Below, in pieces: positions 4,935 through 58,123 of a stretch of 64,000 nt of DNA. Numbering within the stretch: position 1 is the stretch's first letter; the number at the start of each line of letters is the position of its first letter. The stretch is from Raja brachyura (Eukaryota). A program made the translations under genes and the position numbers. The notes under the pieces were generated by a model, which saw nothing but the letters and a program-made list of their open reading frames with translations, searched no databases and was not told the origin of the DNA. The DNA lies in contig OY740792.1 of assembly GCA_963514005.1 (NCBI GenBank), positions 36,084,001-36,148,000 on the forward strand, written 5' to 3'.

Positions 4935-5735
4935 CCGTGGTTTGCCAAGGCCTGCTGGATCTCCCAGCCGCTGCCCAACTCCTCTTCCCACTCCCTCACC
5001 GACCTTTCAGTCCTAGGCAATGGAGAAGGCTCGGGACAGAGAGTTCAGTGTGGGAATGTGAAGGGGAGTTGAAAGAGTTGGCAACCGGGAGATCTAGCAG
5101 GCCTTGGTGGACCGAGTGCCATGTGGCGGACCGAGCGGTCGTCCCGATATGGCTTCCTGTACATTGGCAGGACCAAACATAGACTGGGTGACCTTTTCGC
5201 TCGGTCCACCAAAGCCTTCGACTCATCGGGCCAGGCAGCACCTCTGGATAACATGGATAGGTGACGGTTCTGGTCAGGACCCTTCTTCAGGCTGATTGTT
5301 GGGTGGATGAGGGGGATTGGAAAACAAAGGTGGAAGAGTAATGACAGCGGGGGCGGGACAAACCCTGGCAAGCGATAAATGGTTACGGGGGAGCAGGGAC
5401 TTCTCACCCTCGAGGGAGAGCAGGTGTGCCAGGCATGTGCCCATTACATACAGCGGTGACGCTGTAGATGCAATGCTTGTAGGTTGATTGGCAGATGGAT
5501 GGCACGAGTGACAAAGGCTGGATGTGAAAAGGAGACAAAAGGGCATGATATAAGGAGAGAAGAAGAGGAGTGATTTGTAAAGATGGAGGGAGGAATATTG
5601 GTGGAAGATGTAGATGGATATAAACCGAAGTGGAGACACAAGGAACCCCAGAAGCTGGTTTATACCAAAAAAGACACAAAGTGCTGGAGTAACTCAGTGG
5701 GTCAGGCAGCATTCCTGGAGAACATGGATAATTTT
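4935..5735. mobile_element. Rearranged Penelope-like fragments (GIY-YIG coding pieces in both orientations plus pLTR tails)
   Basis: Pieces encoding DLPVANSFNSPSHSHTELSV and YIGRTKHRLGD occur on both strands; followed by a degenerate hammerhead unit at ~5225-5295. Confidence 0.7.
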
Positions 5736-10330: not shown

Positions 10331-11249
10331 TATAGTACCTGCCCCAACTACCTCCTCTGGCAGCTCGTTCCATATACCTGCCATGCTCTGAGTGAAGAGG
10401 TTGCCTCTCAGGTTCCTTATATATTTTGCCCCTCTCACCTTAAACATGTGACCTCTGCTTCTCGATTTCCCTGCTCTGGGTAAGAAGCATAATGAGCTAA
10501 ATGATGAGAAACGGCAGAGATTTGCGAGATCTGTGTTTCATAGTACACGATTTGCAAAAGGCTCGTTTGCAGGTAATTAGAAAAGCCATTACAGCACTAA
10601 TTAGGAAAGACAACATGTTATGTTTATGGCTTGAGGAGGTGAATACAAAAGTATGAAGGCAATGCTTCAGTTATATCGACCGCTGACGAGACCAAAGATT
10701 TTCAGAGCACAAAAGTAGTCTGAAGAAGGGTCCAGACCAGAAAAGTCACCCATCATTTTCTCCAGGGATGCTGCCCGACTCGCAGAATTGCTCTAGCACT
10801 CTAGTTCTTTATTTCTATTCTTTTAGCTTAGCTTTGTTTACAAATACTGCACAGAAACAGGCCCTTTTGCCCAACTCGCCCATGCGGACCAAGATGCCCC
10901 ATCTAACCGAATCCCATTTGCCCACATTCAACCCATATCCCTTTAAAGTTTTCCTAAACATAGATCGCACAAAAATAAGTTTGCAAACATATTTAACAGT
11001 AAATAATCTTTTAATACTCACTGTTAATAGAACACGAAACAGTACTGCACAAGAACAGGCCCTTCAACCACAACGTTTAGTTTAGTTTATTGTTACGTGT
11101 ACCGAGGTTCAGTGAAAAGCTTTTGTTGCATGCAAACCAGTCAGTGGAAAGACAATACATGATTACAATTCAGTTGGCCGAGCATGATTAACTTAGTCCA
11201 TATTCCTCATGCGACAATAAATGAAACTAAACATATACAAATATATGGG

Positions 11250-12010
11250 GGATTACACAAAAAGCTGGAGAACTCAGCGGGTGCAGCAGCATCTAAGGAG
11301 CGAAGGAGATGGGCGACGTTTCGGGTCGAGACCCTTCTTCAGACTGGTCAGGGATCAGGGAAACGAGAGATATAAACAGTGATGTGGAGAGATAAAGAAC
11401 AATGAATGAAAGATATGCAAAAAAGTATTGGTGATAAAGGAAACAGGGCATTGTAAGCTGTTTGTGGTGTGAAAATGAGAAGCTAGTGCGACTGGGGGGG
11501 GATGGAGAAGGAATGTCAGGGCCCGAGGGCGGAGGGAGAGGTGGGGAGGAGGCAGTCTGGGTTAGCAGAATTGAGAAAATTCAATGTTTAAGCCCAGAGG
11601 ATGCAGACTCCCCAAGCGGAATATGAGGTGCTGTTCCTCCAACTTGCGATGTTGCTCACTCTGGCTGTGGAGGAGGCCCAGGACCGAGAGGTCGGATACG
11701 GAGTGGGAGGGGGAGTTGAAGTGCTGAGCCACCGGGAGGTCGGGTTGGTTATTGCGGACCGAGCGGAGGTGTTCGGCGAAACGATCGCCCAGCCTCCGCT
11801 TGGTCTCACCGATTTAGATCAGCTGGCATCTGGAGCAACGGATGCATTAGATGAGGTTGGAGGAGGTGCAGGTGAACCTCTGTCGGACTTGGAATGACTG
11901 CTTGGGTCCCTGAAAGGAGTGGATGGGGGAGGTGAAGGGACAAGTGTAGCATCTCTTGCGGTTGCAAGGGAAAGTGCCCGGGGAAGGAGTGGAGCGGGAG
12001 GGAAGGGAAG
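11250..12010 (-). mobile_element. Penelope-like element 3' part: GIY-YIG endonuclease ORF end, pyrimidine-rich spacer and hammerhead-bearing pLTR
   Basis: Manual translation of ~11987 to 11562: PSPGTFPCNRKRCYTCPF...RFTCTSSNLI*CIRCSRCQLI*IGETKRRLGDRFAEHLRSV...PVAQHFNSPSH...RKLEEQHLIFRLGSLHPLGLNIEF. This is the Cys-rich GIY-YIG signature of PLEs. The frame is not in the ORF track. Confidence 0.92.
11315..11342 (-). ncRNA. Minimal hammerhead ribozyme motif in the Penelope pLTR
   Basis: Minus strand CUGAAGA-A-GGGUC-UC-GACCC-GAAA-CG-UC: CUGANGA and GAAA core boxes, hairpin stem II, palindromic ACGU mini stem III, GUC cleavage triplet. Confidence 0.7.
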
Positions 12011-12045
12011 AATTGACAAGGGAAATACAAATATATACAAATATA

Positions 12046-13650
12046 TAGTGGAAGTATTAGTGATAATTTTTGAAAACTCTTTAGATTCTGGAGTAGTTCC
12101 TGAGGATTGGGGGGTAGCTAATGTAACCCCACTTTTTTAAAAGGGAGGGAGAGAGAAAACGGGGAATTACAGGCCAATTAGTCTAACATCGGTAGTGGGG
12201 AAAATGCTAGAGTCAGTTATTAAAGATGGGATAGCAGCACATTTGGAAAGCGGTGAAATCATTGGACAAAGTCAGCATGGAATAATGAAAGGTAAATCAT
12301 GTCTGACGAATCTTATAGAATTTTTTGACGATGTAACTAGTAGAGTGGATAAGGGAGAACCTGTGGATGTGTTATATCTGGACTTTCAGAAGGCTTTCGA
12401 CAAGGTCCCACATAAGAGATTAGCATACAAACTTAAAGCACACGGTATTGGGGGTTCAGTATTGATGTGGATAGAGAACTGGCTGGCAGACAGGAAGCAA
12501 AGAGTAGGAGTAAACGGGTCATTTTCAGAATGGCAGGCAGTGACTAGTGGGGTACTGCAAGGCTCAGTGCTGGGACCCCAGCTATTTACAATATATTAAT
12601 GATCTGGATGAGGGAATTAAATGCAACATCTCCAAGTTTGCGGATGACACGAAGCTGGGGGGCAGTGTTAGCTGTGAGGAGGATGCTATGAGGCTGCAAG
12701 GTGACTTGGATAGGTTGGGTGAGTGGACAAATGTATGGCAGATGCAGTATAATGTGGATAAATGTGAGGTTATCCACTTTGGCGGCAAAAACAGGAGGGT
12801 AGATTATTATCTGAATGGTGGCCGATTAGGAAAAGGGGAGATGCAACGAGACCTGGGTGTCATGGCACACAAGTCATTGAAAGTAGGCATGCAGGTGCAG
12901 CAGGCAGTGAAGAAAGCGAATTGTATGTTGGCATTCATAGCAAAAGGATTTGAGTACAAGAGCAGGGAGGTTCTACTGCAGTTGTACAGGGTCTTGGTGA
13001 GGCCACACCTGGAGTATTGCGTACAGTTTTGGTCTCCTAATCTGAGGAAAGACATTCTTGCCATAGAGGGCATACTAAATAATTCGAAACCCCTATAAAC
13101 CCCATCTAAACACCATCTAAACCCCTCTAAACAACCTTTAAACCCCTCTAAACCCCCATACAGAGAAGGTTCACCAGACTGATTCCTGGGATGGCAGGAC
13201 TTCCATATGAAGAAAGACTGGATAGACTTGGCTTGTACTCGCTGAAATTTAGGAGATTGAGGGGGGATCTTATAGAGGCTTACAAAATTCTTAAGGGGTT
13301 GGACAGGCTAGATGAAGGAAGATTGTTCCCGATGTTGGGAAACTCCAGAACAAGGGGTCACAGTTTAAGGATAACGGGGAAGTCTTTTAGGACCGAGATG
13401 AGAAGATCTTTTTTCACACAGAGAGTGGTGAGTCTGTGGAATTCTCCGCCACAGAAGGTAGTTGAGGCCAGTTCATTGGCTATATTTAAGAGGGAGCTAG
13501 ATGTGGCCCTTGAGGCTAAAGGGATCAGGGGGTATGGAGAGAAGGCAGGTACAGGATACTGAGTTGGATGATCAGCCATGATCGTATTGAATGGCGGTGC
13601 AGGCTCGAAGGGCCGAATGGCCTACTCCTGCACCTATTTTCTATGATTTT
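12046..13650 (+). mobile_element. 5'-truncated CR1-clade LINE (reverse transcriptase C-terminal half and 3'UTR), frameshifted
   Basis: NYRPISLTS, LYLDFQKAFDKVPH, GVLQGSVLGP, FADD, LVRPHLEYCVQFWSP and RTRGHSL motifs across ORFs 12195-12599, 12547-13098 and 13191-13562. 3' end gggccgaatggcctactcctgcacctatt. Confidence 0.95.
13076..13156. repeat. 81-bp degenerate (aaacccctct)n insertion within the CR1
   Basis: About 7 imperfect 10-11-bp units, flanked by catac at 13071-13075 and 13157-13161; interrupts the CR1 reading frame. Confidence 0.85.
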
Positions 13651-15930: not shown

Positions 15931-16965
15931 ATGTTACTAGGATCTCCCTCTCAACCTTACCACTCCCTCAGAGGTTCACGATACTGATAGTTGCTGCCTG
16001 GTGAGTGGATTATGGTTGGGAATAGGTTTAAGATTTATGAGCATAAAGCAAGAATATAGAGTCATAGAGCTCGGAAACAAGCCCTTCTGCCCAACTTATC
16101 CATCCCAACCAAGAACACAATCTAAGTTAGTCCTGATTTGGCCCATATCCCTCTAAACCATTACTATCCATGTATCGGAGTCTTTTAAATGTTGTTATAG
16201 TACCTGGCTCAACAACCACCTCTGGCTGCTCGTTCCACATACCCACAACCCTCCGTGTAAAAACGTTGCCCCTCAGATTCCTATTAAAATCTGGCCCTCT
16301 TACATTAAACCTATGCCATCTAGTTTAAAAATAGATGGAAACAGGCCCTTCAGCCCACCGAGTCCATGCCAACCATCAATCACCTGTTCACACTAGTTCT
16401 ATTTCACATACCCACAACCCTCTGTGTAAAAACGTTGCCCCCGAGATTCCTATTAAAATCTGCCCCTGCCACTGATCAGTCTGAAGAAGGGTTTCGGCCC
16501 GAAACATTGCCTATCTCCCTCGCTCCATAGATGCTGCTGCACCCGCTGAGTTTCTCCAGCATTTTGTGTATCCACACTAGTTCTATGTTATCTGATTTTC
16601 TCATCCACTCCCTACACTCTAGAAGGCAATGTACAGACACCAATTAACATACCAACCTGCATGTCTTTGTGTCTTCAGGCACCATGGGGAAACCCACACA
16701 GTCACAGGAACAATGAGCAAATTCCACACAGACAACACCCAAGATTAGGATTGAACCAGTTTCTGGCCCTCTGGGGCAGCGGCTCTACAAGCTGTGTCAC
16801 TGCGTGTCCTCTGGTTTTTGATTCCCCCACCCTGAGTAAGAAGACTCTATACATTTGCCCAAACAAATCCCATCATGATTTTATACTCCTCAGCCTTCTG
16901 CCCTCCAAGGAATAAAGTCCCAGCCTGCACAACCTTTCCCTCAAGTCCTGGCAACATCCTCATAA

Positions 16966-17210
16966 GTCTGAAGAAGGGTCTCGACCCGAAACGTCGCCTA
17001 TCTCCTTCACTCCTTAGATGTTGCTGCACCCGCTGAGTTTCTCCAGCCTTTTGTGTACCCTTGATTCTCCAGCATCTGCAGTTCCTTCTTTAACACATCC
17101 TCATAAGTCTTCTGGGGTTACACAAAAAGCTGGAGAAACTCAGCGGGTGCAGCAGCATCTAAGGAGCGAAGGAGATAGGCATCGTTTTGGGTCGAGACCC
17201 TTCTTCAGAC
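16966..17210. mobile_element. Two oppositely oriented hammerhead-bearing Penelope-derived units at one target site
   Basis: Plus unit 16966-~17094 (intact core 16968-16995) and minus unit ~17114-17210. Host sequence ctcataagtct occurs three times around them. Confidence 0.85.
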
Positions 17211-17838
17211 TCATAAGTCTTCTCTTCACTCTTTCCATCTTAATGCTATATTTGACATGGCTGACAAGTTCATACGTTCTAGGAGCAGAATTAGGCCATT
17301 CAGTCCATCTTAAGAAGGGTCTTGACCCAAAACGTCACCCATTCCTTCTCTCCAGAGATGCTGCCTGTCCCGCTGAGTTACTCCAGCTTTTTGTGTCTAT
17401 CTTCGGTTTAAACCAGCATCTGCAGTTCCTGCTTACACATCAAGTCTACTTGGCAGATCTACCTTTCCCGCTCAACACCATTCCCCTGCCTTCTCCCCAT
17501 AACCCCCGGCACCCGTACTAACCCAGAATCTGTCAATCTCTGCCTTAAAAACATCCATTAACTTGGCCTTCACAGCATGAATTCCACAGATTCACCAGCC
17601 CCTGTCTAAAGAAATTCCTCCTCATTTTTTTTTAAAATTAAAAAACACATCCAGGGCAAGGGAGAATATTTGCCAGTTGTGTTACATAAATTTAAAATTA
17701 ACATCATGATGGATCTCTGTGTACAGTCAACTGCGCATTAATCGCAACACAGTTTTTGCATTACCTAATGCACATTAATTCAGCAGCCTAAGAGATTCCA
17801 TAAAACATTCCTTTAATAATTAAAAATAAACACAACCT

Positions 17839-21604: not shown

Positions 21605-22490
21605 ATAGTCATACAGCGCGGAAACAGGCCATTTGGCCCAACTTGCCCACACCAATCAACATGCCCCTTCTACATTAGTCAGACCTGCCTGCGTTTGGCC
21701 CATATATCCCTCTAAATCTGTCCTATCCATTTAATCTAATTGTTTCTTAAACATTGCAATAGTACCTGCCTCAACTACCTCCTCCGGCAGTTCCATACAC
21801 ACAGCCCCTTTGTATAAAAACAGTTAACCCTCAGGTTCCTATTTAATCTTCCCCCCTCACTTTAAACCCATGTCCTTTGGTTCTTGATTTCCCTTACTCT
21901 GGGCAAGAGACTCTGTGCGTCTGTCTTATCTATTCCTCTCATAATTCTATACACCTTTATTAGATCGCCCCTCATTGTCCTGCGCTCCAAGGAATAATCC
22001 TTGCTTGCTCCCTATACCTCATGCCCTATACCTATACCTCTCTCCCTATACCTCATGCCCTCGGGTCCTGGCAACATTCTCGCAAATGTTCTCTGCGCCC
22101 TTTCCAGCTTGTTACCATCTTTCCTGTAACATGGTGAACAAAATTGAACACAATACACTAAATGTGGCCTCACCAATGTCTTGCATAACTGCAGCGTGAC
22201 ATCCAAACTTATACTCAATATAAACACAAAGTGCTGGAGTAATTCAGCGGGTCAGGCAGCATCTTTGGAGAAAAAGGACGGATGACATTTTGGGTCAGGA
22301 TCCTTCTTCAGACACTGGCCCGAAACGTCACCTATCCTTTTTCTCCAGAGATGTTGCCTGATCTGCTGAGTTACTCCATCATTTTATCTCTATCTTTGGT
22401 ATATACCAGCACCTGCAGTTCCTTTCTACACATTCTATACTCTGACTGATGAAGACCAATGTGCCAAAACCCTTTTTGACCAGATGATAT
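21605..22490 (-). mobile_element. CR1 fragment interrupted by an inverted Penelope-unit dimer (~22220-22432)
   Basis: ORF 22012-22227 LQLCKTLVRPHLVYCVQFCSP; CR1 sequence resumes (ctatactctgactgatgaag) after the dimer. Confidence 0.8.
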
Positions 22491-25709: not shown

Positions 25710-26165
25710 CCGTAGGAAGGAACAACAGATGCTGGTTTATACCAAAGATAGACACAAAGTGCTTAAGTAACTCAGCGGGTCAGACAGAATCTCTAGAGAA
25801 AAGGAATTGGTGATGTTTTGGGTGAAGACCCTTCTTCAGACAGAGTCGGGGGAGGGAAACTAGAGGTATGAACAAATCAGAGTCGGCACCGATGCCCATG
25901 AGAGCAGGGGCCCACAATGGATACAGCAGATGAGGTTGGAGGAGGTGCAAGTACCTGGGGAGGGGGTGGTTTGGAAAGGAAGGGATGAGTTGACCAGGGA
26001 GGTGCGATGGGAACGGTGTCTGCAGAAAGTTGGAAGTGGAATGGGGTGGAGATGTGACTCGTGGTGGGATCCCATTGGAGGTGGCGAAAATGTCAGAGAT
26101 CATGTGCTGTATGCAACAGTTGATAGGGTGGGAGGTGAGGATTCAGGGGACTCTGTCCTTAGTTA
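25710..26165 (-). mobile_element. Degenerate Penelope-like fragment with pLTR unit
   Basis: PSPGTCTSSNLICCIHC remnant plus a degenerate hammerhead unit at ~25812-25840. Confidence 0.7.
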
Positions 26166-30400: not shown

Positions 30401-30942
30401 TATTAGGATCTCGCATCACCCCACCCCGCCACACGTGTGAATATTTAATAAATCCCATGTTTTAAACAGTGGGCCAAACCCACATTATTCACACTTGAAT
30501 TCATGCTCATTTCTTCATCAAAAGAGACAAGAGAGCTTAATTGTCATATGATAGACACAATAAGCTGGAGTAACTCAGTGGGTCACGCAGCATCTCTGGA
30601 GAAAAGGAACAGGTGACGTTTTGGGTCAAGAGCGGAGTTACTCCAGCATTTTGTGTCAATACCAGCATCTGCAGTTTCATCAGTTGTCATATGTCTCAGC
30701 ATGAAATTCTGCTGTCTGATAGAGATATATTTAGGATTAGATTTATTATTGTCACGTGTACCAAGGTACGGTGAAAAGCTTTTGTTACATGCTAACCAGT
30801 CAGCGGCAAGACAATACAAAATTTTGCTTAGCATGCTATCCAAAAAGGTCAGATAATACCATACACAATCAGGTCAAACTCAAGCACAATAAGTAGAGCA
30901 AAGGGGAAGGTACAGAGTGCAGAATGTAGTTCTCAGCATTGT

Positions 30943-33847: not shown

Positions 33848-36800
33848 AATTCATCCCCTGTTGCAAATCATCATCTCCTGTTCCTTGTTTTGGACTTTAG
33901 AGAGCCCGAGTCCCACTGAGTCCAAGACAACCAATGATCGCCCTGTACACTAACACTATCCTACACACTAGGGACAATTTACATTTCTTTTAACCCAGGC
34001 CAATTAACTTACAAACCTGTACATCTTTGGGATGTGGGAGGAAACCAGAGTTCCCGGTTTAAAGATTCCACCATCTCCAGGTCCTTGTGTCTCCATCTGG
34101 AATAATTCCCAGTTCTGATAAAAGACCATTGACTCGGACAGTAACCCTGCTCCGTTCTCTCCATAGATGCTGCCTGATCTGCTGAGTATTTCCAGACTTA
34201 GTCATTTTACTGAATATATACACAAAGTGCTGCAGTAACTCAGGGCGTCAGGCAGCATCTCTGGAGAAGAGGAATAGGTGACATTTTGGGTCAAAACCCT
34301 TCTTTAGACAATATTAGTTATCAGTAGAAATTCCACGACACTTGCTACATACTATGACAACCACAAATGGAAACTAAAATGTGCTACAGGATTGTTTTCT
34401 CTGAAGAAGAGTTTGATGGGAGACCCATTAGAAGTCTATAAGATAATGAGAGGTTTAGATAGGGTAGAGTAGACAGTCAGAACCTTTTTCTCAGGATGGA
34501 AATGTCGCAGACGAGATGAGTTTAAGATGAGAGGGGCAAAGTTTAAAGGAAGACTGCAAGGCAAGTATTTTTTTATTTTTCCACACAGAGGGTGGTGGGT
34601 AGAAACAAAGAACAGCAGAAGCTGGTTTATATCAAAGATAAACACAAAGTGCTGGAGTAAGAGCAGGTCAGGCAGTATCCCTGCAGAACAAAAGATAGGT
34701 GACGTTTTGGGTCGAGACTCTTCATCAGACTGAAGGTAGGGGGTGCTTGGAACTGCCTCCACCACTGCCAGGGGTGGTGGTGGAGGCAGATATGATTGTG
34801 GTGTTGAAAAAGGCTTTTGGATAGACAGATGGATATGTAGGGAATGGAGGGGTGTGGATCAAATGAAGGCGGAGATTAGTTTAATCTGGCATCATGTTCA
34901 GCAGGGACATTGTGGGTGGAAGGGCCTGTTCCTGTGCTGCAATGTTCTATAGTCAATGATCAAGCCTCCACCTTGAACTGTGCTGTTCCCAAGTAGAACT
35001 ATGAGATAATCCATGAACATGAAGCAGCCCACCTATAAATCACGCAGTTTTATCAAAGCTGCCAAATGTTACATATTATCGTGATGACTTTAAATAATTT
35101 CAGTGCCAAGAATCAAACAACTTTAAGGAGTCCTTGACCCCAAATAATGTTAGCTGCTAGGAATTATTCATCAATTGTACTCGCTATGTAGAAGTTTCCG
35201 GACTTACAGCACCTTAGTAATGTTATTTAACACCGTATGGCATGGTCAAGTTTTCCTTAGTCAATTTGAATTGATCTTTTTTGTGTCCACCTTTCCTGGG
35301 TCATCGGTACCAGCTCTGATTTGTTCTGTACCTCTAGTTTTCCTCTCCCCTGACTCTCGGTCTGAAGAAGGGTCTCGACCCGAAACATCACCCATTTCCT
35401 TTCTACAGAGATGCTGCCTGACCCGCTGAGTTACTCCATCTTTTTGTGTCCACCCTTTGCCTTCTTTCATCTCTAACCATTGACACTTACTCCACTTATC
35501 TGCCAATTTACTTGTAGAAACAAGGAACTGCACATGCTGGTTTACCAAGGAAAGGCACAAAATGCTGGAGTAATTCAGCAGGTCAGACAGCGTCGCTGGA
35601 GAACATAGATAGGTGATGTTTCAGGTCAGGACCCTTCTTCACTTTAAAACGTCACGTATCCATGTTGTCCAGAGATGCTGCCAGATCTGCTGAGTTACTC
35701 CAGCAATTTTGGGTCTTTTTTTTTGTAAATTAGCATCTGCCTTCCTATCACTTGGAAGGTTTTATCCCACCCCCATTTCGCTTTCCAGCTTTCCTCCATC
35801 ACTGCAATAAAGTCTGAAGAAGGGTCCCAATCCAAAACATTGTCTGTCCATTCTCTCCACAGGTGCTGCCTGACCCGCTGAGTTCCTCCAGCACTTTGTA
35901 ATGCGTTTGTGACTGTGTGGATCTCATACCACGATCCATGGATTACTAATGATGAATTGGGGATAAAATGAGGGGCAGGATTTATTTGCATTGTTATTCC
36001 TGGCTGCTATTAGGAAACTATAATCATTTGGCTTTAATAAATAGATCTATTTTTGGTGACTACTTGAAAATTCATACTTGCAAATTTCCAAAGTATATTA
36101 GTTTTAGTTTTAGAAATACAGCAACGGAAACAGGCCCTTCAGCCCACCGAGACCACACCGGTTTTATGTTATCACCCTCTCTTATCCCTCCTGCACACTA
36201 GGGGGCGATTTACAGAATGCCAATTAACCTTCAAACCCGCACGTCTTTGGGATGTGGAAGAAAACCCACGTGATCACTGAGAAAATGTGCAAACTCCCTG
36301 CACATACAGCATTGAGGTCAGGGTGGAACCCGGGTGTCTGGCGCTGTGAGGCAGTGGCACTACCAGCTGCCCCTTGTCTGACAGTAATTTGCATTGAAAT
36401 CAAAGGTTTCAGTGATTCACATCCATTAATCACCCTGTTGATCATCACTGCAAAGCAACAAGCAGGAGAGGTTCCATGGACAGGTTGCATCACAGCCTGG
36501 CTTGGGAAACAGCTCTGCCCAAGCGCAAGAAATTGCAGAGCTGTGGATGTAGCTCAGTCCATCACACAGACCAATTTCCTTACTGTTAATTCTGGCCAAA
36601 TTGGAGCTGCCAGGACACTAAAATTGAGGACAGGTTTCTGGGCTGCTAGGCCATTTGGTCAATTTAAATGTGCCTTCTGCAGAAATGGGACAAGCTGCAG
36701 AATGGTGCCAGCTTGTCTAGAGCCTAGATAAGAGTTGCAGGAAAAGAATGGAACATCTGCAGATTCTGACAATTAGATGTAAACTGCAATAAACAGCTTG

Positions 36801-37366: not shown

Positions 37367-39044
37367 CCCCATATAGAAGTCCAGTCTTAGCAGGGGAAAG
37401 TAGTATTTGGGAGGAAAAGTTGTCCATTTAAGAAGTAGTCCCCCACAGGAAAGAGTACCCTAGGAACGGGAAAATCTTCGGTATCAGAGGGAGAGGTTCA
37501 CTGATTGATAACAGCGTGACGCAGCATTGAGATCGAGTGTTTGTAAACTGTGCGCTAGCATAAATTACTATTGTAAATTGTGGAAATCCAGCATCATCTT
37601 TTGTAGCATTTTTATTGGATCTGAATTGTATAAATACTTAAGATTTAGAGTGTGTTAAGTTCGCGGACCGCTACTTGTATTGCCCGTGTGCGTGCTTAAG
37701 GATTTTTGGTTGTAGGATAATTGAAGTAAAAGTGCGTTTGAATTAAATATTTTTATTTGTTTAAATCGGGATTGTACTATTGTTAGAATCTGATTTGTGG
37801 TAGTTTGATCAAGGTTCGTATTCTTTCGATCGCTGTGTCGGGGGAGGAGTCGTTCCGTTGAATGAGTACGCCACAATGAGTGTGATTTACTGTCATAATA
37901 AGTGGATGCTTGTAGTTTCAATTGGGGTGTGTCTGGGTTTACTTGTAATCAGGGGAATAATTTCTTGTTTGATTGTAGTTTTACTTGTGTGGTTCGGGTT
38001 TGTTTGTCTGTGTGAACTTAAAGTGTTTTGAGTGGGAGAGATTGCTGCTTGGGAAAGATTGCTATTAAGAGCCGGAGCTTTAGTTTTTGAAATCGGAGAT
38101 TCTTTGTTTGAAGGCTGAAAGTTGAATGAGGTGATTGTGATTTAGCTGATAAGAAAGTTGGGAGAGCGATTGAATAAGAGCGATTGATTCGAATAATTGA
38201 ATAGGAGCGATTGAGTGGGTGATTGAATAACGGTTGGAAGAGAACGATTGTGTGAGAAGTGTGAATCTGCCAAACGCTAGCCATTGTGTGGGGGTGATTT
38301 CAGTGGCCTTGGACTCTGAAAAGAAGGAGCGAGTATTGAATAAGTGTGTGTCTGGATTTTTATTTGTATTGTGACTATTGTGCTGAAGGGTGGGGAATGT
38401 TTCAGAGTAGGACCTATCAAATATACCCGAAAGGCTGATAAGAATATATTTTTTGAGAAACTTCCACACAAAACAGAGAGATTAAGTGGATTATCTGGAA
38501 AATTAAATAGAGTTTTGAGGAATGAACTTTGGCCGATAGGTGAACTAAAACCAATAGTAGGAATAACCTACATAGAGACAATTATTTGAAGATAGGGAAA
38601 CAGTGAAGGGAACCAGCTTATTAAAATATGGAGAATGTTCTTCACAGATAAGTAAATAAAGAGATTGTTCCGCTTTCTTCCAAGAATGGCGGCGTTTAAA
38701 TTAGGGATTAGAATGGAAAAAGAGAGAACTGGTCCTTCTCTGGACATTCTGGAACAGGGGAAGGAAGATAGTGGAAGCCAGCAGCAGGAGCAGGAGAGAA
38801 CATCAGCTTTTAAAAAAGAAATGACTCAGATGACTCTTAAAGGGAAGGTGCCGACTAAAATCAAACTTATTAAATTTAGTAAGAGCCGCGGTTAGCGTGG
38901 ACCTCGAGGGGAGAGAAGCCCAATATATGCAAGGGAGTGCAGACTTTTTTCTGAGTAGAGTCACAGCATTCCGCACAGCACTCTCATGTTCTTAGTTCGG
39001 AGACGCCATGCGCAGCTTGCGAGCAGGGCGCTCAGGAGGAGTCA

Positions 39045-39896
39045 GTGGTATCTTCGACTCCACCCACTAAATTCAAATCCAAAATAGGAAAATCGGGAAA
39101 GGACTCTCTAGCTCCGATGATCTTTTCACCAGCTGAGGATAGTGTGGGGGATCAAGGAGCTAGAAGGAAAGTTCCGCAGAAGTGGGTACCAAAATTAATT
39201 GGGAAATCAGGTGGGAATGTGAAAGAATCCTTCCTAAAGTACAGAGATTCCAGTAGCAGAACGAGCAGCTTTGAGGGTGAGACAGCAGGAGGATATGAAG
39301 TGGCTGATCCCGACATCGATAGCATTATAATTCCCAAAGATGTGGGTATGGAGCGGATTCCCCTCAGCCAATTCCCTAGTAGGAAGCTGCCTACTTCACC
39401 TATAGAATTAGATCCCGCAGTAGGTGTAAATGATCCCTGGGCCACAAACGTCCCCATTTCAATGCAACCTGGTTGGATGGCGGCTAAATCCTCCCAGAGA
39501 CCCGTACTAAGAATCCAGAAATGGGAAGTAACTTCAAAGGAAGATAAGGAGGAGGAGGAACATAAAGCATGGATAAACATGCCATTCTGAGAGCCGACTT
39601 TCCCTCGGTTTGGTTGGAGTGGGTACAGAGCTGTTATATCTGATCAATGTTACAACTGTGGGAAATCAGGACATTGGAACCGATCTTGCCCTGTGAGGAA
39701 ATACCGAGAAGGAAGGTGGCAAAGAAGAGGGCCATGGGGTTTAAGAAGATCCCTAGAGGTTACAGGGATACTTGGGACCCCGAAGGTAGAGGAAATGGAC
39801 ACTGGCCAGAAGATCAGGGGACAGGGACATTCTGGCAACCAAATCCATTCTGGTAGCCCTAATATTCTGCCAGCTAATACAAAGTATGACATCTGA
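39045..39896 (+). pseudogene. Degenerate gag-like ORF with CCHC zinc knuckle
   Basis: ORFs 39045-39590 and 39693-39896 share one frame broken by a single TGA. The bridging segment encodes CYNCGKSGHWNRSC (39648-39689, CX2CX4HX4C) followed by a basic tail. Confidence 0.75.
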
Positions 39897-45729: not shown

Positions 45730-47463
45730 CTAAAGAGAGCTCCCCGCTATGTAATAGCAGCAGGCACAGTGTGGCGGTGGGCAGAGTCACTGCCTCACAG
45801 CAACAGAGATCCAGGTTCAATCCTGACCTCGGGTGCTGTCTGTGTGTGGGGTTTGCACGTTCTCTCTGAGACCGCGTGGGTTTCCTCCCACATTCCAAAG
45901 ACATTTGTAGGTTAATTGGTCTTCTGTGAATTGCTGCTGGTGCGTAGGTAAGTGGTAGAATGTGGAGGGAAACGAGAATAATATGGAGCGGATAAAGTTG
46001 GATTTGATTAATGTAAATGAGTGATCAATGGTCTTGATGCCCATATTTGAATGCTGGAAACATAAAACGAAAACATTTTAAAATTAATTGTTGCACGGTG
46101 GTGCAGCTGGAAGAGCTGTTGCCTCACAGCGCCAGAGACCCAGGTTCTATCCCAACCTCTACTTTACATGCTGTTCCTGTGACCATGTGGGTTTCCTCCC
46201 ACGTCTCAAAGACGTGTGGGTTTGTAGGTTACTTGGCTTCTGTAAATTACCCCTCGTGTGTAGGGAGTGGGCATAACGTAGAACTAGAGTGAACGAGGTT
46301 AATAGTCAACATGGACTCGGTGGGCCGAAAGGCCCGTTTCCATGCTGTATCTCTACAAAATCCTCGTGTGAATGGGTGATTAGTGGTTGCATTGGACTGT
46401 GGGTTGAACGGCCTGTTTCCGTGCTGTATGGCTCCATGAATAACTACTCGTCCAAACTCCATTTGCCAGTTTCAAGCGTGGCTCTGGGCAAGTAAGGAGG
46501 TAATAATGAATTGGAGGAACAGCACCTTGTATCACTTGGGCAGCTTACAACCCAGTGGTGTGAACATTGATTTTTCTCATTTCTCATTCCACTCTCTCCC
46601 TCCCTCCCGCCCGCACCTCAATTAGTCTACTAGTTCCACTGTTTGTATCCCTGTCGTTAGCTCATCTTCCCCAGCCAACAATGGACTCCACACTACCAGA
46701 GGTCATCCGTTGCCGACCCCAATTTGGTTTGCCTTTCCTTCTGAAAAAGGTTCCCAACCCGAAATGGCGTCTATTCCCATTCTCCAGAGATGCTGCCTGA
46801 CGTGCCGAGTTAGTCCAGCATTTTGGGTCTATCTTCAGCAACAATGAATTGGTCTGAGATGAACAAGCCCTGACTGCTACCCGACACCAATGGTATCAAT
46901 GGGTTTCAGGCAATAGGGATCAATTTGACAGAGAAAGGCAGCAGGATGACAACTGGAGCAATGTCCTTAAAGGCAAGTGCCATCGAAGACATTCCAATGG
47001 TCAGGGACATGTCATCCTCACTGCATGGGCTGTGACCTTCTCTGGGAAACAGAGTCACAACTCAGTACAATTATCACACTGCAAAGTGCAAGATGTTACC
47101 AATAAACTGTGCTGCAACTTTGAACCGCTCAGTGTGTAGGAAGGAACTGCAGATGCTGGTTTGTAGCGAAGATAGACACAAAGTGCTGGAGTAACACAGC
47201 GGGTCAGGCAGCACCTCTGGAGAAATAGGTGCCACTTCAGGTCAAGTCCCTTCTTCAAACTGAGTCAGGGAAGAGGGAAACTAGAGATATGAAAATGTAC
47301 AGCACACATCAGAGCCCACAATGGTCTATTGCCGGCTGTGGAGGTGGTAATGAGGGGATACAAACAGTAAAACTAGCTGGACAAAGAGGATGGGAGAGAG
47401 ATGGAAAGAGGGGGAATGCTAGGATTATTTGAAATTAGAGAAATCCATATCCATATTCACATT

Positions 47464-47597
47464 GGGGGTCTGAAGAAGGGTCTCGACCCGAAACGTCGCC
47501 TATCTCCTTCACTCCTTAGATGCTGCTGCACCCGCTGAGTTTCTCCAGCTTTTTGTGTAACCCTCGATTCTCCAGCATCTGCAGTTCCTTCTTTAAC
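47464..47597 (+). mobile_element. Stand-alone 134-bp hammerhead-bearing Penelope-derived unit
   Basis: Perfect 14-bp TSD tccatattcacatt (47450-47463, 47598-47611); intact core at 47470-47497 preceded by ggggg. Nested in an older minus-strand PLE tail. Confidence 0.9.
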
Positions 47598-47974
47598 TCC
47601 ATATTCACATTATTGTTTTCAGATTATCATAGCCAACTCAAGAAACATCTGGATTACAACAAACTCAGTAATCTGCAAAGTAACCAGTGTGTGAATCCTT
47701 TCATTTTAATTTCCTCTGCCTGCACGTGATCCCTACCCCTCCATTCACTGCATATTCATGTGCCCATCTAAAAGCCTCTTAGACTCCACTATTGTATCTG
47801 CTTCCACCACCATGCCTAGTAGCATGTTCTAAGCCCTTGCACAATGCAACGTTCATCTTTGCAAAAGATTTCCCATTTCTTACACTGTTGCTTACATTAT
47901 GTCAAATTTGCCTTTTCTTACAATCAGAAACACCATCTACTGACTGATAATCAGATACAAACCTCAGCATAGTC

Positions 47975-48722: not shown

Positions 48723-50094
48723 AGATGCAATTTATCCAGGGTTACACAAAAAGCTGGAGAAACGCAGCGGGTGCAGCAGCATCTAAGGAGCGAAGGAGAT
48801 AGGCGACGTTTCGGGTCGAGACCCTTCTTCAATTGCCTCTCTAATGGTGAACACTATCCTTTGTTTCCAAAGCAGAAGCTGCTAGGAGATGCTGGGGGAG
48901 TTAAACCAAGAAAATAATTATGCAGGCGGGGAAGATTAAAGAAATCTTATAGGCGATGTATACGCTTACGTTTGTTTGTTATTGTCATATGGGACATAGT
49001 TACAGTGGAAAGCTTTATTATGCATCAGGTTATATTATACAGAAATACAATCAAGCCAAACTCAACTACAATCGGTAGAGCAAAGGGCACAATACAGGGT
49101 TCAGAATAAAGTAAACTACGGGTGCGGTCTGTGTAGAGTTTGCACGTTCTCCCTGTGACCACGTTAGTTTTCTCAAGGTGCTCTGGTTTCCTCCCACAAT
49201 CCAAAAACATACAGGTTTGCAAGTTAATTGGCTTGGGTAAAATTATACATTGTCTCCAGAGTGTGGGATAGTGTTAGTGTACGGGGTGATCGATGCCTAC
49301 TCGGTGAGCCGAAGGGCCGGTTTCCGTGATGTATCTCTAAAATTTGAAGTCTAATGTCTAAAAGGACACCAAGTGTTGGAGTAACTCAGCACTTGGGTCA
49401 GGCAGCACCTCTGGAAAACATGGCTAGGTGATGTTTTGTGTTGGGACCCTTCCTCGGTACATAGTTCTCAGCATTTTTGCAGGGAGAAGAATAATCGTCC
49501 AGGGTGGGATATCTTAGATTATGTAGAAACACTAATCAGGCTGATGAAGGGTCTAACCTGAAAACTTCACCCACCCATGTTCTCCAGAGATGCAACCTGA
49601 CTCGCTGAGTTACTCCAACACTTTGTGTCTTATACAGGTGAGGGGGAGGGGGATGAGGAGGTTTGATTGCCACATACTCCACTCATCTGCCAAAGGCTAG
49701 AAATAAAAAGGGTGTTAGACTAAGAGTGAAGCACAGTGAACTGGAAGTCCAGAGGGTGGGATATAGGAGGTAGGGGATGCAGGAGATAATGCAAGGCTGA
49801 ACTCCACTTCACAAAAGTTCAGCTCTGTGTTTTGTATTATCATTCCACACCAAAATGTTCACCTAGATCCCTACAAAACCGACTGATTTTATCACAGAGA
49901 TTAATGGCCAACTTGCAATTAAGTTAATGGATTTTGACGATTCTTTAAAAATACCCTTTTATATAATCTATTTAGAAGCTTCATAAAATATAAAGCAATT
50001 ACTTGACAGGAAAAACTGGTTCACAACAAGCCCACAATTCATTAGTGAGTGTGCATAGAGATGAAATATAATATTCCATGCAACATTATACCTT

Positions 50095-50420: not shown

Positions 50421-51898
50421 ATATTATCTCATGACTCCAAGTAGCCAAAGATAAACACAAAGTGTTGGAGTAATTCAGTGGTGCAGGCAGCATCTCTGGA
50501 GAACATGGATGGGTGACGTTTTGGGTCTAGACTTCTTCAGACTGAGTGGGATTATACGTTTAAGACTTTGAGATTTACCTTTCTTCCAAGTGAACCCTAT
50601 TTTTTTTCCCCAGACCCCTAATGTTTTTTCTGATTGAGTCTGCTTCTTCCACATAGGGACTGTAAGCAGACAACTCAATTTTAAGAACCTGTATTAACCC
50701 CTGCATCACACTGACATACTGTAGGGAGAATGTACAAACTCTGTGCAGACAGCACCCGTAGTGAGAATTGAACCTGGGTCTCTGGTGCTGCACGGCAGTA
50801 ACTCCACCGCTGTATCATCGTGCCACCATTAAAACAGTGAGAGGCAACTCTGCATCATTAAGCAATAAATGCCTCTCCAATTTAAGTGGATCAAGTCAAA
50901 TCAAGAGCCTTTAATTGCCATATGTACCAAATGGAACAATGAAATTCCTACTTTCATCTGCATAACAGCACTCAATAGCTAACAAAATAAAACAAATAAA
51001 AATTGAATATTAGTGCAAAACAAAAGCCCCAGATTCTCTAGAATAATCAAGAGAGTTTGTAGTTTAGTTGGTGTTTACTAGCCTGGTGGTTGATTGCTGG
51101 AAACCAGTATGTTGGTGCAATAGATAGACACAAAGTGCTCGAGTAACTCAGTGGACCATACGGTACATCAGGTGAAAAAAAGAATAGATTAGGTTTCAGG
51201 TTGGGACCCTTCTTCAAACTGAAAGTAGGGAGGGTGGCAATGGAAGAGGCCCAGGACAGAAAGGTCAGTAGTGGAATGGGGCAGGGATTTGAAACACTCT
51301 TACTTTCAGTGTGAGGAAGGTTCCCGACCCAAAAGGTCACCTATCCTTTTTCTCCAGAGATGCTGCCTGACCCTGCTGAGATAGCCCAGCACGTTGTGTT
51401 TATCTTTGGTATAAACAATCTGCAGTACTTTGTTTCTACATATAGGCTGGTGTAATGTAAAGGTTAAAACAGGCTTTCCAACTAAAATAGAGTTGTCTTC
51501 CAACAGTCATTAAGTGAGGCAAGCAGACTCATTCTGAAAGACAATTAGATTCTTGGAGAAGTGGGCTCGCTTGAAAGATAAGTAAACTCAAGGTCTTGAA
51601 CATACAGCTACAAGGACATGTAGTCAGAAGATAAGGTAAACGTTTTATTTCTGGAGACAATGAGATTAACTGAGTTCCTGTGCATGTAGAGTGCACAAAA
51701 TTGCATTTAGCAATTGGGTTTTGGATACAACCTAGTCACATAGAGCAAAATAATGATGCACCCTGTGAGTTTGCACTCCAGGATATTTGTCATTTGGCAT
51801 TTGTTCCTCAATAGTTTTCGATTTTCATGTGGTGGCAAAGATATTTTGTTTCATTTTTCACTGAAGCACCCACGATAATTTCAGGGTTGGGTTGTTTA

Positions 51899-54440: not shown

Positions 54441-55397
54441 GCGCTGGAGTAACTCAGTGGGTCAGGCAGCATCTCTGGAGAACATGGATGGGTGACGTTT
54501 CAGGTCGGGACCTTTCTTCAGACGGATTGTGGGGAGGGAGGACGGGGGGGGGGGGGGGGGGGGAGAAAGAAAGATGGAAGAAGGGAGAGGCAGTACAAGG
54601 CATCAGGCAATTGGTCGACACACGCAAAGGGGATTTTTTCATAGGCAGATGTTTGGAGCAAAGGCCAGAGATAAGAACAGTAGGTGTAAGACAGGTTTCA
54701 AGACATGTGGATTGTGAAGCCGGTTGATGGTGGAGGAAATTATTGGGGGGGACCTAATAGGTAGAAGTGCAGGTGGGGCGCAGGGGAGGGGAAGGAGGTG
54801 AGAAAGAGGTTGGAGGTTACCCAAAATCAGAGATTTTACTGTTGGGTTGCAAACTGCCCAAACGGAATAAAGGCCACGAGGAAACATAAATTAAATAATA
54901 TTGGAGACAGATAATCTCAGCATAAAGAAGGGCTTTGACCCGAAATGTCACCCACTCCTTTTCTCCGGAGATGCTGTCTGACCCACTGACTTACTGACAT
55001 ACAGACGGACCCACTGACCCGTTGCATTTTGTGTCCATCTACGATGTAAACCAGCATCTGCAGATCCTTCCTACATAATTGCTCGACAGGTTAACCAGCA
55101 TCAGTGAATAGAGAAATAGAGCTAACATTCAACTGATGATCTTTATTGGGATCTGCCCGACCTGCTCAGTAATTTATTTTAACTTTCAGATTTTTGGCAT
55201 TTCCAGTAATTAATTTATTATCTGCAGGAAGTAGCAGCAAAATAAAACAATTGTGGATACGGTCATCCTGATTAGGAAATCAGGCAGCTGTTCCCTGCTG
55301 TTAGGCATGGAGAAACTGTCTTGTGCATTAAAAAAACTCTTTCATCAGTGCAAGCAGTGCAAAATGTGACCATCAGATTGCCACTTATTAAGACAAA

Positions 55398-55576
55398 ATG
55401 AGGCAAGGACATGTCTCACACTGACCTACTGTAGGGAGGCAAATGAGGCAAGGACCGTGCATCACACTGACCTACTGTAGGGAGGCAAATGAGGCAAGGA
55501 CCGTGCATCACACTGACCTACTGTAGGGAGGCAAATGAGGCAAGGACCGTGCATCACACTGACCTACTGTAGGGAG
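55398..55576. repeat. 46-bp minisatellite, ~3.8 copies
   Basis: Unit cacactgacctactgtagggaggcaaatgaggcaaggaccgtgcat. Confidence 0.92.
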
Positions 55577-55747: not shown

Positions 55748-56360
55748 AGGGCCTGTCCCACTTGGCTGCCTTTCACGCGCCAATTACGCAACCTGCTAGC
55801 GTGTGGGTAGCGCGGGGACAGGCGCATGGAGTGGCATGGAGTGGTGTTGACTTAGTCCTGCACAAAATCTTTGCGCACCACCGGCCTGTCGCGTAACTGA
55901 CGGCCAAAGTGGAACAGGCACAAGACCCTGGCGTGACGCGACGCCTCACCTCCAACAGCAGCAGAAGCAGGCAAGCGATCGTCGAGCTCGGCCTGGGGCT
56001 CACGGCCGTTGCAGATTCGGATCCGCCCCCACTCCTACTCCCAGAGCGGGGCCAAGATGATTGAAGATATACACAAAATGCTAGAGTAACTCAGCGGGAC
56101 CGGCAGCATCGCTGGAGAGAAGGAATGGGTGACGTTTCGGTCGAGACTCTTCTTCAGTCTGAAGAAGACAAAACATCATCCATGTCTTCTCTCCAGAGAT
56201 GCTGCCGGTCCCGCTGAATTACTAATGCATTTTGTGTCCATCTTCAAATGACGTCACGCGCTCCAGACGGCTGTGCGGGCGCATGATGATGCGCGCGACT
56301 CTCACGTGACCGTCACTACCGGCCTGTCGCGAAAGTGACGGCCCAAGTGGGATAGGCCCT
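55748..56360. mobile_element. Harbinger-type MITE containing an inverted hammerhead-unit dimer
   Basis: TTA TSD (55745-55747, 56361-56363); TIR agggcctgtcccacttgg. Inserted in a PLE tail; internal dimer at ~56061-56247. Confidence 0.88.
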
Positions 56361-57591
56361 TTACTCTTTGCATATCTTGTATTCATTTGCTCCACATCTC
56401 TCTATGTTACACCGTCTACATCTCCCATTTCCCTTTCACCTGACCCTCAGACTGAAGAATAGTCTCATCCCGAGACATCACCTATTGCTTTCCTCCAGAA
56501 TTCTCTTTGTTTTCACTTTTAATTACAAGTTTGTTTACCTTGTGTGTTGTGACTGTCGGCAGACCAATTTCCCTCCGGGGATGAATAAAGTTTTATCGTA
56601 TCGCATGCTGCCTGATCCACTGGGGTGCTCCAGCATTTTGTGCCTATCTCAAATCCATCAATCCATGGTTCCTTTATCACATTCTTACGCAACAATGCTT
56701 TCAGCACAGTTAAACAGAGATTTGCAAGTTATTCCCTTCCAAAACACAGAGATTAGATCCCAAGTACTTTGACCTTTACCACCAGATAGGGACACAAAAA
56801 GCTGGAGTAACACAACGGCTCAGGCAGCTTCTCTGGAGACGAGGGATAGGTGATGTTTCAAGTCGAGACCCTTCTTCTGTCAGATAGTCAGGGGAGAGGG
56901 CACAGAGAGAAGCAAAAAGGTACATAGAGAAAATTAATGAAAGACATCCAAAAAGACAGCCCAAAGCCGGCAACAATGATCCAGGAAAGGTGGAGCGCAC
57001 AATGGTCCATTGATGGCTGTGGGCAAGGTATAACGTGTAGCACAAAGAGTGCAACTCAGCAGGACGACAGTGAAACTAGTATGATGACTAGTGTGGGGAG
57101 GGATGGAGAGAGAGGGGATGCAAGGATTACTTGAAGTTAGAGAAATTAATATTCACACCACTGTATAGGCAGAGTGTAAGTGAGCCTCAAAAAGGCAGCC
57201 AGCATCATCAGAAACCCACACCACTCTGGCCACACTCTCACTCCACTCTTTAGAATGTAGAGATCAGCGTGGGAACAGGCCATTCCACCCACCGAGCCCA
57301 CACCGACCATCGATCACCACGTGTGCTTGCACTATCCTACTAGGGACAATTTACAGAAGCCAATTAATCTACAAACCCGCATATCCGTGGAATGTGGGAG
57401 GAATCTGGAGCAGCTGGAGAAAACCCTCGCAGTCAAACGGGGAGAACATACAAACTCCACACAGACAGCGCCCGTAGTCAGAATCCAACCCGGGTCTCTG
57501 GTGCTGTAAGGCAGCAACTCTACCGCTGTGCTAGTGTGCTGCCTCCTGCCATCAGGAAGAAGGTACACTCTGAAAACTGACCTCCAGCTTC

Positions 57592-57686
57592 AGTCTGAAG
57601 AAGGGTCTCGACCCGAAACGTCACCTATTCCTTCGCTCCATAGATGCTGCCTCACCCGCTGAGTTTCTCCAGCATTTTTAATTACC
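57592..57686 (+). mobile_element. Hammerhead-bearing unit with intact core (57595-57622)
   Basis: ctgaagaagggtctcgacccgaaacgtc; imperfect flanking duplication acctccagcttcagt / accttccaggttcagt in a Rex1-like host. Confidence 0.8.
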
Positions 57687-58123
57687 TTCCAGGTTCAGTA
57701 ACAGCTCTTGAACACTAGAAACGCCAACTAAACTATGAACCGTCTTGGTTGCACCAAGGACTTTGGGCGTTGTGCACTAACTTTCTTATAATTTATTGTC
57801 GTTATTGGTTATTATGTTATCAATTGGTTCTGTGTTTACAGGCGTGTTAAGCGGCTGCAAGAAAAAATGTCATCGTTCCATTGTTGGCAAGAGTCGACAA
57901 TGTGTAATTTTGATATGTATCAAAACGGAACAATTAAATTCTTACTTGCAACAGCATAACAGGCCTGTAAACAAAATACCCAAGATAACATCATAAACAA
58001 ATAAATCAATAAATTACAAAAAATATATTAATGCATTAAAAATTAGTGTAACCAGGACACCTCATAATTTAGCAGTGTTCATGAGCCTGATGGTTGTCGG
58101 GAAGAAGCTGCTCCTGAATGTTA

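Follow-up and report, generated by a model that had tools for sequence, protein, structure and literature searches.

Short hammerhead-bearing repeats in a skate genome as putative terminal modules of a Neptune-type Penelope-like element

The repeat, its neighbours and its parent element

The window, that is, the whole 64-kb stretch of skate DNA analysed here, is densely populated by one short repeat, and a few other features stand beside it. An immunoglobulin V-set exon lies at 2139-2552 on the minus strand (Pfam E 9e-10), and we assume that it resembles IGSF3/IGSF8-type first domains. An open frame of 211 codons at 38955-39590 (+), with no Pfam or Atlas match, is possibly a host exon, and a 46-bp minisatellite unrelated to the repeat occupies 55396-55576 (4 copies, 97% matches). 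A truncated LINE with an RT domain, which we take to be CR1-like, lies at 12047-13562 (+; Pfam RVT_1 E 4e-22), where it abuts the most informative copy of the repeat.

As for the repeat itself, the dozens of copies first reported were readily recovered: a blastn search of the 64-kb window with the copy at 47464 as query returned 53 HSPs. A profile built from 12 copies gave 59 nhmmer hits (34 minus, 25 plus; three of them halves of split copies or copies cut by the window edge), which sum to 5,653 bp, or 8.8% of the window, a figure in keeping with the massive amplification that had been proposed. The same profile found no hit in any of three Markov-shuffled windows. Four cores that had been listed as intact are identical 28-mers, located at 16968-16995, 47470-47497 and 57595-57622 on the plus strand and 11315-11342 on the minus strand. 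In what follows, C3 of the hammerhead core is counted as +1, so that the predicted cut after GUC falls between +28 and +29.

Where does the repeat come from? The copy that bears on this question most directly lies at 11247-12028 (-). It is a 5'-truncated copy of a Penelope-like element (PLE) with the broken end of a GIY-YIG ORF (about 12023-11562), a 3'UTR of about 220 nt, a core at 11342-11315 and a short 3' end at +96, as in the short copies; an 18-bp TSD with one mismatch (11229-11246 / 12029-12046) bounds it. The ORF fragment in this copy confirms the preliminary description, according to which a copy at 11250-12010 physically joins the unit to a GIY-YIG ORF. Both GIY-YIG tyrosine codons in 11562-12011 (-) are now TAA, and the ORF is dead despite the 96-97% identity of the unit to the youngest copies. 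Since the 3' end type and the TSD type of the ORF-bearing copy are those of the short copies, and since it is nested among them, the repeats are, as judged from their sequence, the 3'-terminal (pLTR) module of a Neptune-type PLE. The Penelope origin first suggested is thus supported by a copy that has both the ORF and the common 3' end.

The Neptune assignment comes from the protein. The ORF fragment (12011-11562, minus strand), translated with X at stop codons, has 35 longer protein relatives, the closest being skate proteins (73% and 71% identity), followed by shark and ray proteins (57-66%). Full-length relatives encode RT plus GIY-YIG; RT is present in these homologues and reduced in the window copies to degraded pieces of the RT-to-EN linker. 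At the C-terminus of the fragment there is a CX4CxxC linker with a CCHH-type GIY-YIG, and in 13 aligned proteins C16, C21 and T23 of the linker are invariant and C24 nearly so. A CX2-5CxxC linker combined with a CCHH GIY-YIG is a trait of Neptune/Nematis that is missing from Poseidon (PMC8557442), and by its predicted linker and endonuclease motif the element is probably an EN+ Neptune-type PLE. Pfam GIY-YIG matches two of the relatives (P0004 and P0022), not the broken window fragment (P0001). Neptune-clade EN+ PLEs are described with the same C-terminal GIY-YIG and Cys linker (PMC4209133; PMC8557442), and with 5' truncation, inverted 5' copies and an optional 30-40 bp tail (PMC8557442), all of which have counterparts here. 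What distinguishes the window element is its very high local density and a narrow 5' hotspot before the core, a hotspot that was not found in the accessible descriptions of that clade.

Older copies retain traces of the same parent. One at 25717-26163 (-) has 3'UTR and degraded ORF pieces upstream of its core, one at 46443-46838 (+) a remnant of the GIY-YIG C-terminus plus 3'UTR, and one at 35291-35457 (+) about 67 nt of 3'UTR and a TSD of about 12 bp; further UTR-bearing copies have their cores at 29420 (-), 47258 (-), 56452 (+) and 56879 (-). The cores at 25839, 46741 and 51217 are preceded by ORF remnants. No full-length or partial-tandem (pLTR-ORF-pLTR) element lies within the 64-kb window.

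The label "retrozyme/SINE-like", which had been attached to the repeat, is not retained. No tandem array of the unit is among the 16 TRF rows of the window, no tRNA head was found in the unit, and poly(A), microsatellite or other simple-repeat tails are absent, the 3' ends directly abutting the TSD; moreover, the short copies do not appear to be separate from the ORF-bearing copy. A Pol III SINE derived from tRNA, 5S or 7SL was also considered and rejected, given that the unit has no tRNA, no Rfam match and no simple-repeat tail.

The hammerhead motif

The 47464 copy contains a minimal type I hammerhead core at 47470-47497 (+), made of CUGAAGA, an extra A, stem II (47478-47489), GAAA and a loop-less palindromic ACGU stem III. 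Stem I has only 2-4 bp, and the cut is predicted between 47497 and 47498. This architecture, including the loop-less stem III whose palindrome had been pointed out, matches the minimal motifs of PLEs (PMC4209133), and the motif is a putative ribozyme. Neptune-clade hammerheads likewise have an extra nucleotide before stem II, G10.1-C11.1 and a palindromic 15.2-16.2 (PMC4209133).

Does the variation among copies speak for a ribozyme? All core bases (CUGANGA and GAAA...UH, with stem II and G10.1-C11.1) are found in 15 of 41 aligned copies, and 7 of the 41 are fully intact in core, stems I and II and palindrome. Of the 41, 14 have lost the catalytic G12 and 15 have lost G16.2, both positions being at CpG. 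It had been argued that variants of stem II keep their pairing and that variation at N7 is what a hammerhead would show. Among the window copies 81.1% of cells are paired, compared with 81.8% after shuffling, and changes on both sides number 3 where 4.8 are expected; most of the changes that keep a pair turn a C into T and so leave a G-T pair, many of them at CpG. The N7 variants cited belong to broken copies, that at 34728 having G12->A and that at 49541 having no ACGT palindrome, and N7 varies in 6 of the 41 copies while C3 varies in 8. The check for stem II covariation, which had been proposed as a test, found none in the window copies, and with CpG decay in addition the argument for a hammerhead from stem II and N7 fails. 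The copies decay neutrally.

A comparison between families gives a different answer. In an alignment of three window copies and 10 sequences hand-picked from 38 rows that had been pre-filtered for core and stem II pairing, 94.2% of cells are paired versus 73.7% in shuffled alignments, and both-side changes number 16 versus 4.8 (0 of 500 shuffles reach this). Stems I and III were unfiltered in this alignment, which includes two sequences (L038 and L080) not tied to the ORF; the middle pair of the unfiltered stem I is kept in all 13 sequences, with 5 double changes. Pairing and double changes in stem I across families, next to neutral decay in the copies, indicate that selection on the fold acts on master elements. 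A hammerhead is supported across families as a plausible motif.

General models behave otherwise: the Rfam hammerhead models gave no match at gathering threshold in the window and none at E up to 10 in 47400-47660, which may be explained by minimal motifs that lack the stem III hairpin expected by these models. The hammerhead is not formed in the minimum-energy fold of the unit, and the folding signal of the whole unit is weak (z = -1.66; 11 of 200 shuffles fold as well). Two predicted proteins, P0009 and P0014, both end in C-terminal peptides that look like read-through translation of the hammerhead region. The pair suggests that a putative hammerhead also follows the ORF in a shark and in an environmental relative.

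Minimal hammerheads of PLEs are known as thousands of single motifs per genome, attributed to truncated PLEs and of low activity even as dimers (PMC4209133). As dispersed motifs of this origin have already been described, the window repeat does not represent a new class of mobile element. In PAc, a Poseidon element of Anolis carolinensis, the ribozyme needs a protein, and insertion in vitro does not depend on this ribozyme (Frangieh et al. 2024, PMC11167929).

Ends and junctions of the insertions

The 3' ends fall into two groups. In the 59 hits, 23 end at profile positions 91-106, 25 at position 122 or beyond and 11 elsewhere, and TSDs place the ends at +92 to +96 and at +127/128. The unit of about 130 bp first described is hence one of the size classes, but copies come in two lengths, which measured from the core are about 95 nt and about 128 nt. 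The spacing of about 33 nt, represented in the 47464 copy by an optional tail at 47565-47597 (+), matches the optional tail of 30-40 bp reported for PLE insertions (PMC8557442), and the TSDs are variable in length (12-18 bp). PAc likewise has two fixed 3' ends downstream of its hammerhead, which bound a tail and correspond to two internal RT start sites (PMC11167929). The short end (about +93) is inside a predicted downstream hairpin at 47518-47580 (+; arms 47518-47525 and 47573-47580), and the long end (+127/128) is beyond it. In 80 metagenome loci with 39-55% protein identity to the ORF, a sense-strand hammerhead follows the ORF at a fixed distance in 25 (21 at 91-102 nt, 4 at 151 nt), and the 3' end of the main family is at +86 to +95. 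Distant relatives that end at a matching offset make the end module a conserved PLE feature.

At the other side, 43 of the 59 hits reach the start of the core. Clear upstream homology to another copy is present in 7 of these 43, and a pyrimidine-rich upstream stretch in 15 of 42 copies (the 3855 fragment being left out), against a background of 6% that predicts 2.6. About a third of the core-bearing copies thus run on into subfamily-specific 3'UTRs, which blurs the 5' boundary of old copies. The young subfamily can be judged without this blurring, since the ORF-bearing copy shows what its upstream sequence is. In 7 of its 8 copies only 0-4 nt upstream match the ORF-bearing copy, with starts at -5 to +2, and five of the seven are bounded by TSDs. 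If truncation were uniform, at a rate taken from 13 internally truncated hits out of 56 in a way that undercounts very short copies, the probability of 7 of 8 would be 2e-10 to 3e-9, and 1.3-1.9 of 42 stops would be expected in a window of 10-15 nt.

The earlier observation that many copies begin at the core is therefore borne out in the young subfamily. Its companion, a preferred truncation point at the ribozyme, stands in part: there is a strong preferred 5' end, but it is not at the cleavage site. The predicted cut is some 30 nt downstream of the hotspot, and just 3 of the 59 hits start within 5 nt of this cut, so ribozyme cleavage does not set the 5' end of insertions. Judging from these positions, the predicted cut sets neither insertion end, as also described for PAc (PMC11167929).

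Individual junctions are of three types: microhomology (16968, 17208, 57595 and 6106), extra G (47464) and a 63-nt local filler (16481). Microhomology is present at 4 of the 5 junctions at which the TSD abuts the unit, and bases -5 and -4 are retained in many copies. The 47464 copy (47464-47597, plus strand) consists of four extra G followed by the terminal module from -2 to +128, tail included. Sequence comparison confirmed its 14-bp TSD at 47450-47463 / 47598-47611; as a decoy rate, one in 1,500 flank pairs has an abutting repeat of at least 12 nt with at most 1 mismatch. It had been said to start 6 nt before the core, which is right for the insertion, but the match to the element begins only at -2. 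The four G (47464-47467), situated between TSD and element match, are absent from the ORF-bearing copy, the upstream match running for 2 nt, and are likely non-templated.

Other short copies add to this picture. The young copy with tail at 16965-17094 (+) has a 16-bp TSD (16954-16969 / 17095-17110) whose last 5 nt are common to the element start, a case of microhomology. Tail-to-tail with it, and overlapping its target, is a young copy without tail at 17114-17209 (-; 14-bp TSD 17100-17113 / 17210-17223). In this stretch (16954-17223) the two copies are about 20 nt apart and a 9-nt target word is present three times; the pair could stem from a single event primed on both strands or from two hits at one site. 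The copy at 57590-57687 (+) has a 12-bp TSD with one mismatch (57583-57594 / 57688-57699) that overlaps the element start, and a young copy starting at about +2 lies at 48739-48832 (-), where no TSD was found. The copy at 16403-16572 (+; 14-bp TSD 16389-16402 / 16573-16586) carries the filler in front. These 63 nt (16403-16475 region) are 94% identical to nearby 16236-16298 and form a locally templated insertion at the 5' junction; a 5' transduction at 16481 was accordingly rejected.

Seven pairs of copies in the window are arranged head to head. In one of them, at 56061-56246, the two copies meet in the middle of the palindrome TCAG-T-CTGA with which the unit starts, and the pair at 22209-22424 has a tail on one end only; similar pairs are located at 1866-2036, 30548-30677, 35522-35741, 49361-49632 and 51110-51431. 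In the last of these a piece of the GIY-YIG ORF is almost directly joined to the core, most of the 3'UTR being skipped.

Assembled contigs mapped on 11215-12054 offer a view beyond the window. Four of 23 contig runs were used (X1, 78,070 contigs; X9, 109,420; X15, 6,223; X16, 6,874). Summed contig depth, which is no copy number and in the core bins collects other subfamilies as well, amounts in X1 to 6.7-7.9 million at the core, falls to 3.5 million for the subfamily-specific bin and is 1.4-2.0 million over the five 3'UTR bins that follow; the values in X9 are 22-24 million, 9.0 million and 2.2-5.3 million. From the subfamily-specific bin to the 3'UTR bins depth drops about 1.8- to 2.3-fold or more in both runs, and the profile suggests a stepwise change at the core along with considerable read-through. 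In X15 and X16, loose ends whose flanks are long and heterogeneous occur at -2 to -4. In the largest class, at -4 (55 and 76 contigs), the templated T comes next; these loose ends probably mix in junctions with the UTRs of other subfamilies. In X16 the letter that follows loose ends at -3 is mostly A, not G. Some contigs have tandem core duplications 33-38 nt apart (11308-11347), and such a neighbouring core could supply the partner for a dimeric hammerhead. Among the best 12 of 309 joint rows, all six tandem-core joints that restart at A(-3), in 5 distinct forms, have a preceding G.

Could the hotspot be a splice acceptor? A pyrimidine tract plus CAG does precede the core, but this candidate was not supported, since no AG-ended canonical joint is among the best 15 of 199, and TSD-bounded young copies have no common upstream exon.

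How the short copies may have arisen

The account that we rate slightly above an even chance is that the short units are insertions of the PLE terminal module, produced from internally primed cDNA that runs off the RNA 5' end just before the core. As inferred from the biochemistry of the Anolis PLE, the GIY-YIG endonuclease would nick the target and RT would begin copying internally, either at about +93 or at about +127. The transcript would have one module at its front (the upstream pLTR) and another at its back. Priming at the back would yield ordinary, variably truncated copies with ORF and 3'UTR; priming at the front would yield a fixed run-off of 95-130 nt, like retroviral strong-stop DNA, which would then be joined to the target, presumably by microhomology. 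The RNA 5' end would lie a few bases before the hammerhead core, and the ribozyme would act, if at all, on master transcripts, probably as a dimer or with the help of a protein.

Run-off is favoured by three considerations: PLE transcripts start inside the pLTR (PMC2377424; PMC8557442), the length of the product follows the template 5' end, and an RT ought to stall before a structure. In vitro, PAc primes internally at two sites that match its genomic ends and its tail, and its product length is set by the template 5' end (PMC11167929). The extra bases at some junctions are hints in the same direction, namely the four G at 47464 and the G before A(-3) in the tandem-core joints listed, which a cap might give. 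Cap-derived G is found in LINE copies. TCAGTCT at the unit start presumably fits an initiator consensus, although YYANWYY motifs are common (11 per kb), and at +28 to +32 a DPE-like match by what we take to be the DPE consensus reaches 4 of 5 by eye and is too weak to count.

Other facts weaken it. In D. virilis the PLE transcript starts about 120 nt more to the 5' side, ahead of an intron that ends at helix I (PMC2377424; PMC4209133); distant relatives have TTCGCT instead of TCAGT; and only 3 of 20 of their secondary copies start near the core, in loci that were selected for ORFs. As the specific cause of the 5' hotspot, run-off of internally primed cDNA at the RNA 5' end is for us an evenly balanced proposition. 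The fuller version, in which skate PLEs would insert their own strong-stop cDNA in bulk, with priming at the front pLTR running off a capped 5' end before the hammerhead, is more tentative, and we would bet against it as a whole.

An alternative is that the unit is an independent non-autonomous element. Some short copies would then be transcribed in their own right, through an internal promoter or through read-through from the host, and the PLE protein would move them again in trans, in the manner of a SINE. The young subfamily, with a single long copy as its anchor, has seven short copies, and there are precedents: non-autonomous PLE derivatives exist (MRC1, Chlamys-N4; PMC8557442, PMC9977147), and pLTR sequence alone mobilises passengers in trans (PMC3846280). 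Deletion derivatives that join ORF end to core are seen in the 51217 copy and, with skips of 264-275 nt, in all four contig runs. Yet a tree of 39 copies places the ORF-bearing copy, which has 96-97% identity with four of the short ones, inside the young clade (support 97/88 with 6 rows, 99/93 with 8 rows), a tree on which most deeper forks are weak and the bootstrap is unsettled. Long copies are partly clustered there (4 changes versus 6.6 in shuffled trees, 2 of 500). That short copies of many ages exist is easier to reconcile with successive masters producing them again and again than with a single derived SINE, a comparison of low power. The sole apparent 5' transduction, at 16481, is local templated filler, and a tRNA head is lacking. 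In Anolis, priming needs an RNA that reaches about 55-60 nt beyond the downstream RT start (PMC11167929); by analogy across clades, priming that requires RNA beyond the RT start would make a unit ending there a poor template. An independent element is consequently an unlikely reading; preferred truncation of PLE cDNA fits better, and the two are compatible.

Equally doubtful is abortive copying of a longer RNA. Here the 5' end would be fixed at the TCAG-T-CTGA palindrome at the base of stem I, where the RT would dissociate, the cDNA fold back or the endonuclease resolve the intermediate, and the RNA itself would have no end at this point. The inverted pair joined at the palindrome centre would suit it, as would the frequent retention of -5 and -4 and the microhomology at TSD-abutting junctions. 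For PLEs, palindromes have been described both where pLTRs begin and where inverted copies meet, as have microhomology joining and solo pLTRs (PMC3846280). Extra G at some junctions is left unaccounted for, however, and the extension of about a third of copies into 3'UTR also speaks against it. An RT moves 3' to 5' on its template and would be expected to halt at the 3' edge of a structure and not beyond.

A retrozyme, in which hammerhead cleavage and circularisation give a small RNA whose ends define the unit, is very improbable: the motif is a plausible hammerhead, non-LTR retrozymes are non-coding, related to pLTRs, equipped with a type I hammerhead and found in one chondrichthyan (PMC7229834; bioRxiv 10.64898/2026.07.22.740005), and contigs show rare tandem core duplications, but retrozymes are defined by tandem units, with a hammerhead per unit and circular RNAs, whereas the window units, which bear a minimal motif and are flanked by TSDs, lie scattered singly or as inverted copies, are no cut-to-cut monomers, have tandem joints 1-7 nt past the predicted cut and not at it, and have an Anolis relative whose ribozyme-dead RNA inserted normally in vitro (PMC11167929).

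Returning to run-off of PLE cDNA, the nearest known systems are instructive. PAc differs in belonging to the Poseidon clade without Cys linker, in an ORF that starts in stem II and in having no fixed 5' end reported in the accessible text (PMC11167929). Chlamys-9 / Chlamys-N4 of Chlamydomonas also make short PLE insertions, with a median of 128 bp attributed to 5' truncation (PMC9977147); they differ in their N-terminal endonuclease, (C)n targets and lack of canonical hammerheads, as far as PMC8557442 describes them. A literature search, as far as its listings and the accessible passages go, found no account of the skate element and none of a hotspot for 5' ends ahead of a hammerhead, and a look-up of terms in the available text of PMC10115646 gave neither; Repbase/Dfam entries, the min-HHR tables of PMC4209133 or the family tables of bioRxiv 10.64898/2026.07.22.740005 may list the element already.

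The importance of these copies is modest: the young ones are clean junctions for a transposition cycle that is poorly understood, and their fixed 5' end leads to a specific prediction of where the RNA starts. If this is true, tens of thousands of short copies would mark the transcription start in the genome, and from the manner of joining (head to head at the palindrome, or following a second cDNA) one could read how pLTRs and inverted ends form anew. For pLTR regeneration no obvious mechanism beyond tandem formation is offered in the accessible part of PMC2377424; confirmation would help to understand it and would also explain the presence of a repeat that makes up about 9% of the window.

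Some copies have more complicated histories. At 4976-5295, directly downstream of the 5290 (-) copy, GIY-YIG ORF fragments are found on both strands, a rearranged or nested insertion. Two copies, at 5640-6108 and 56448-56659, have been split by later insertions, the first of them with a 16-bp TSD containing one mismatch.
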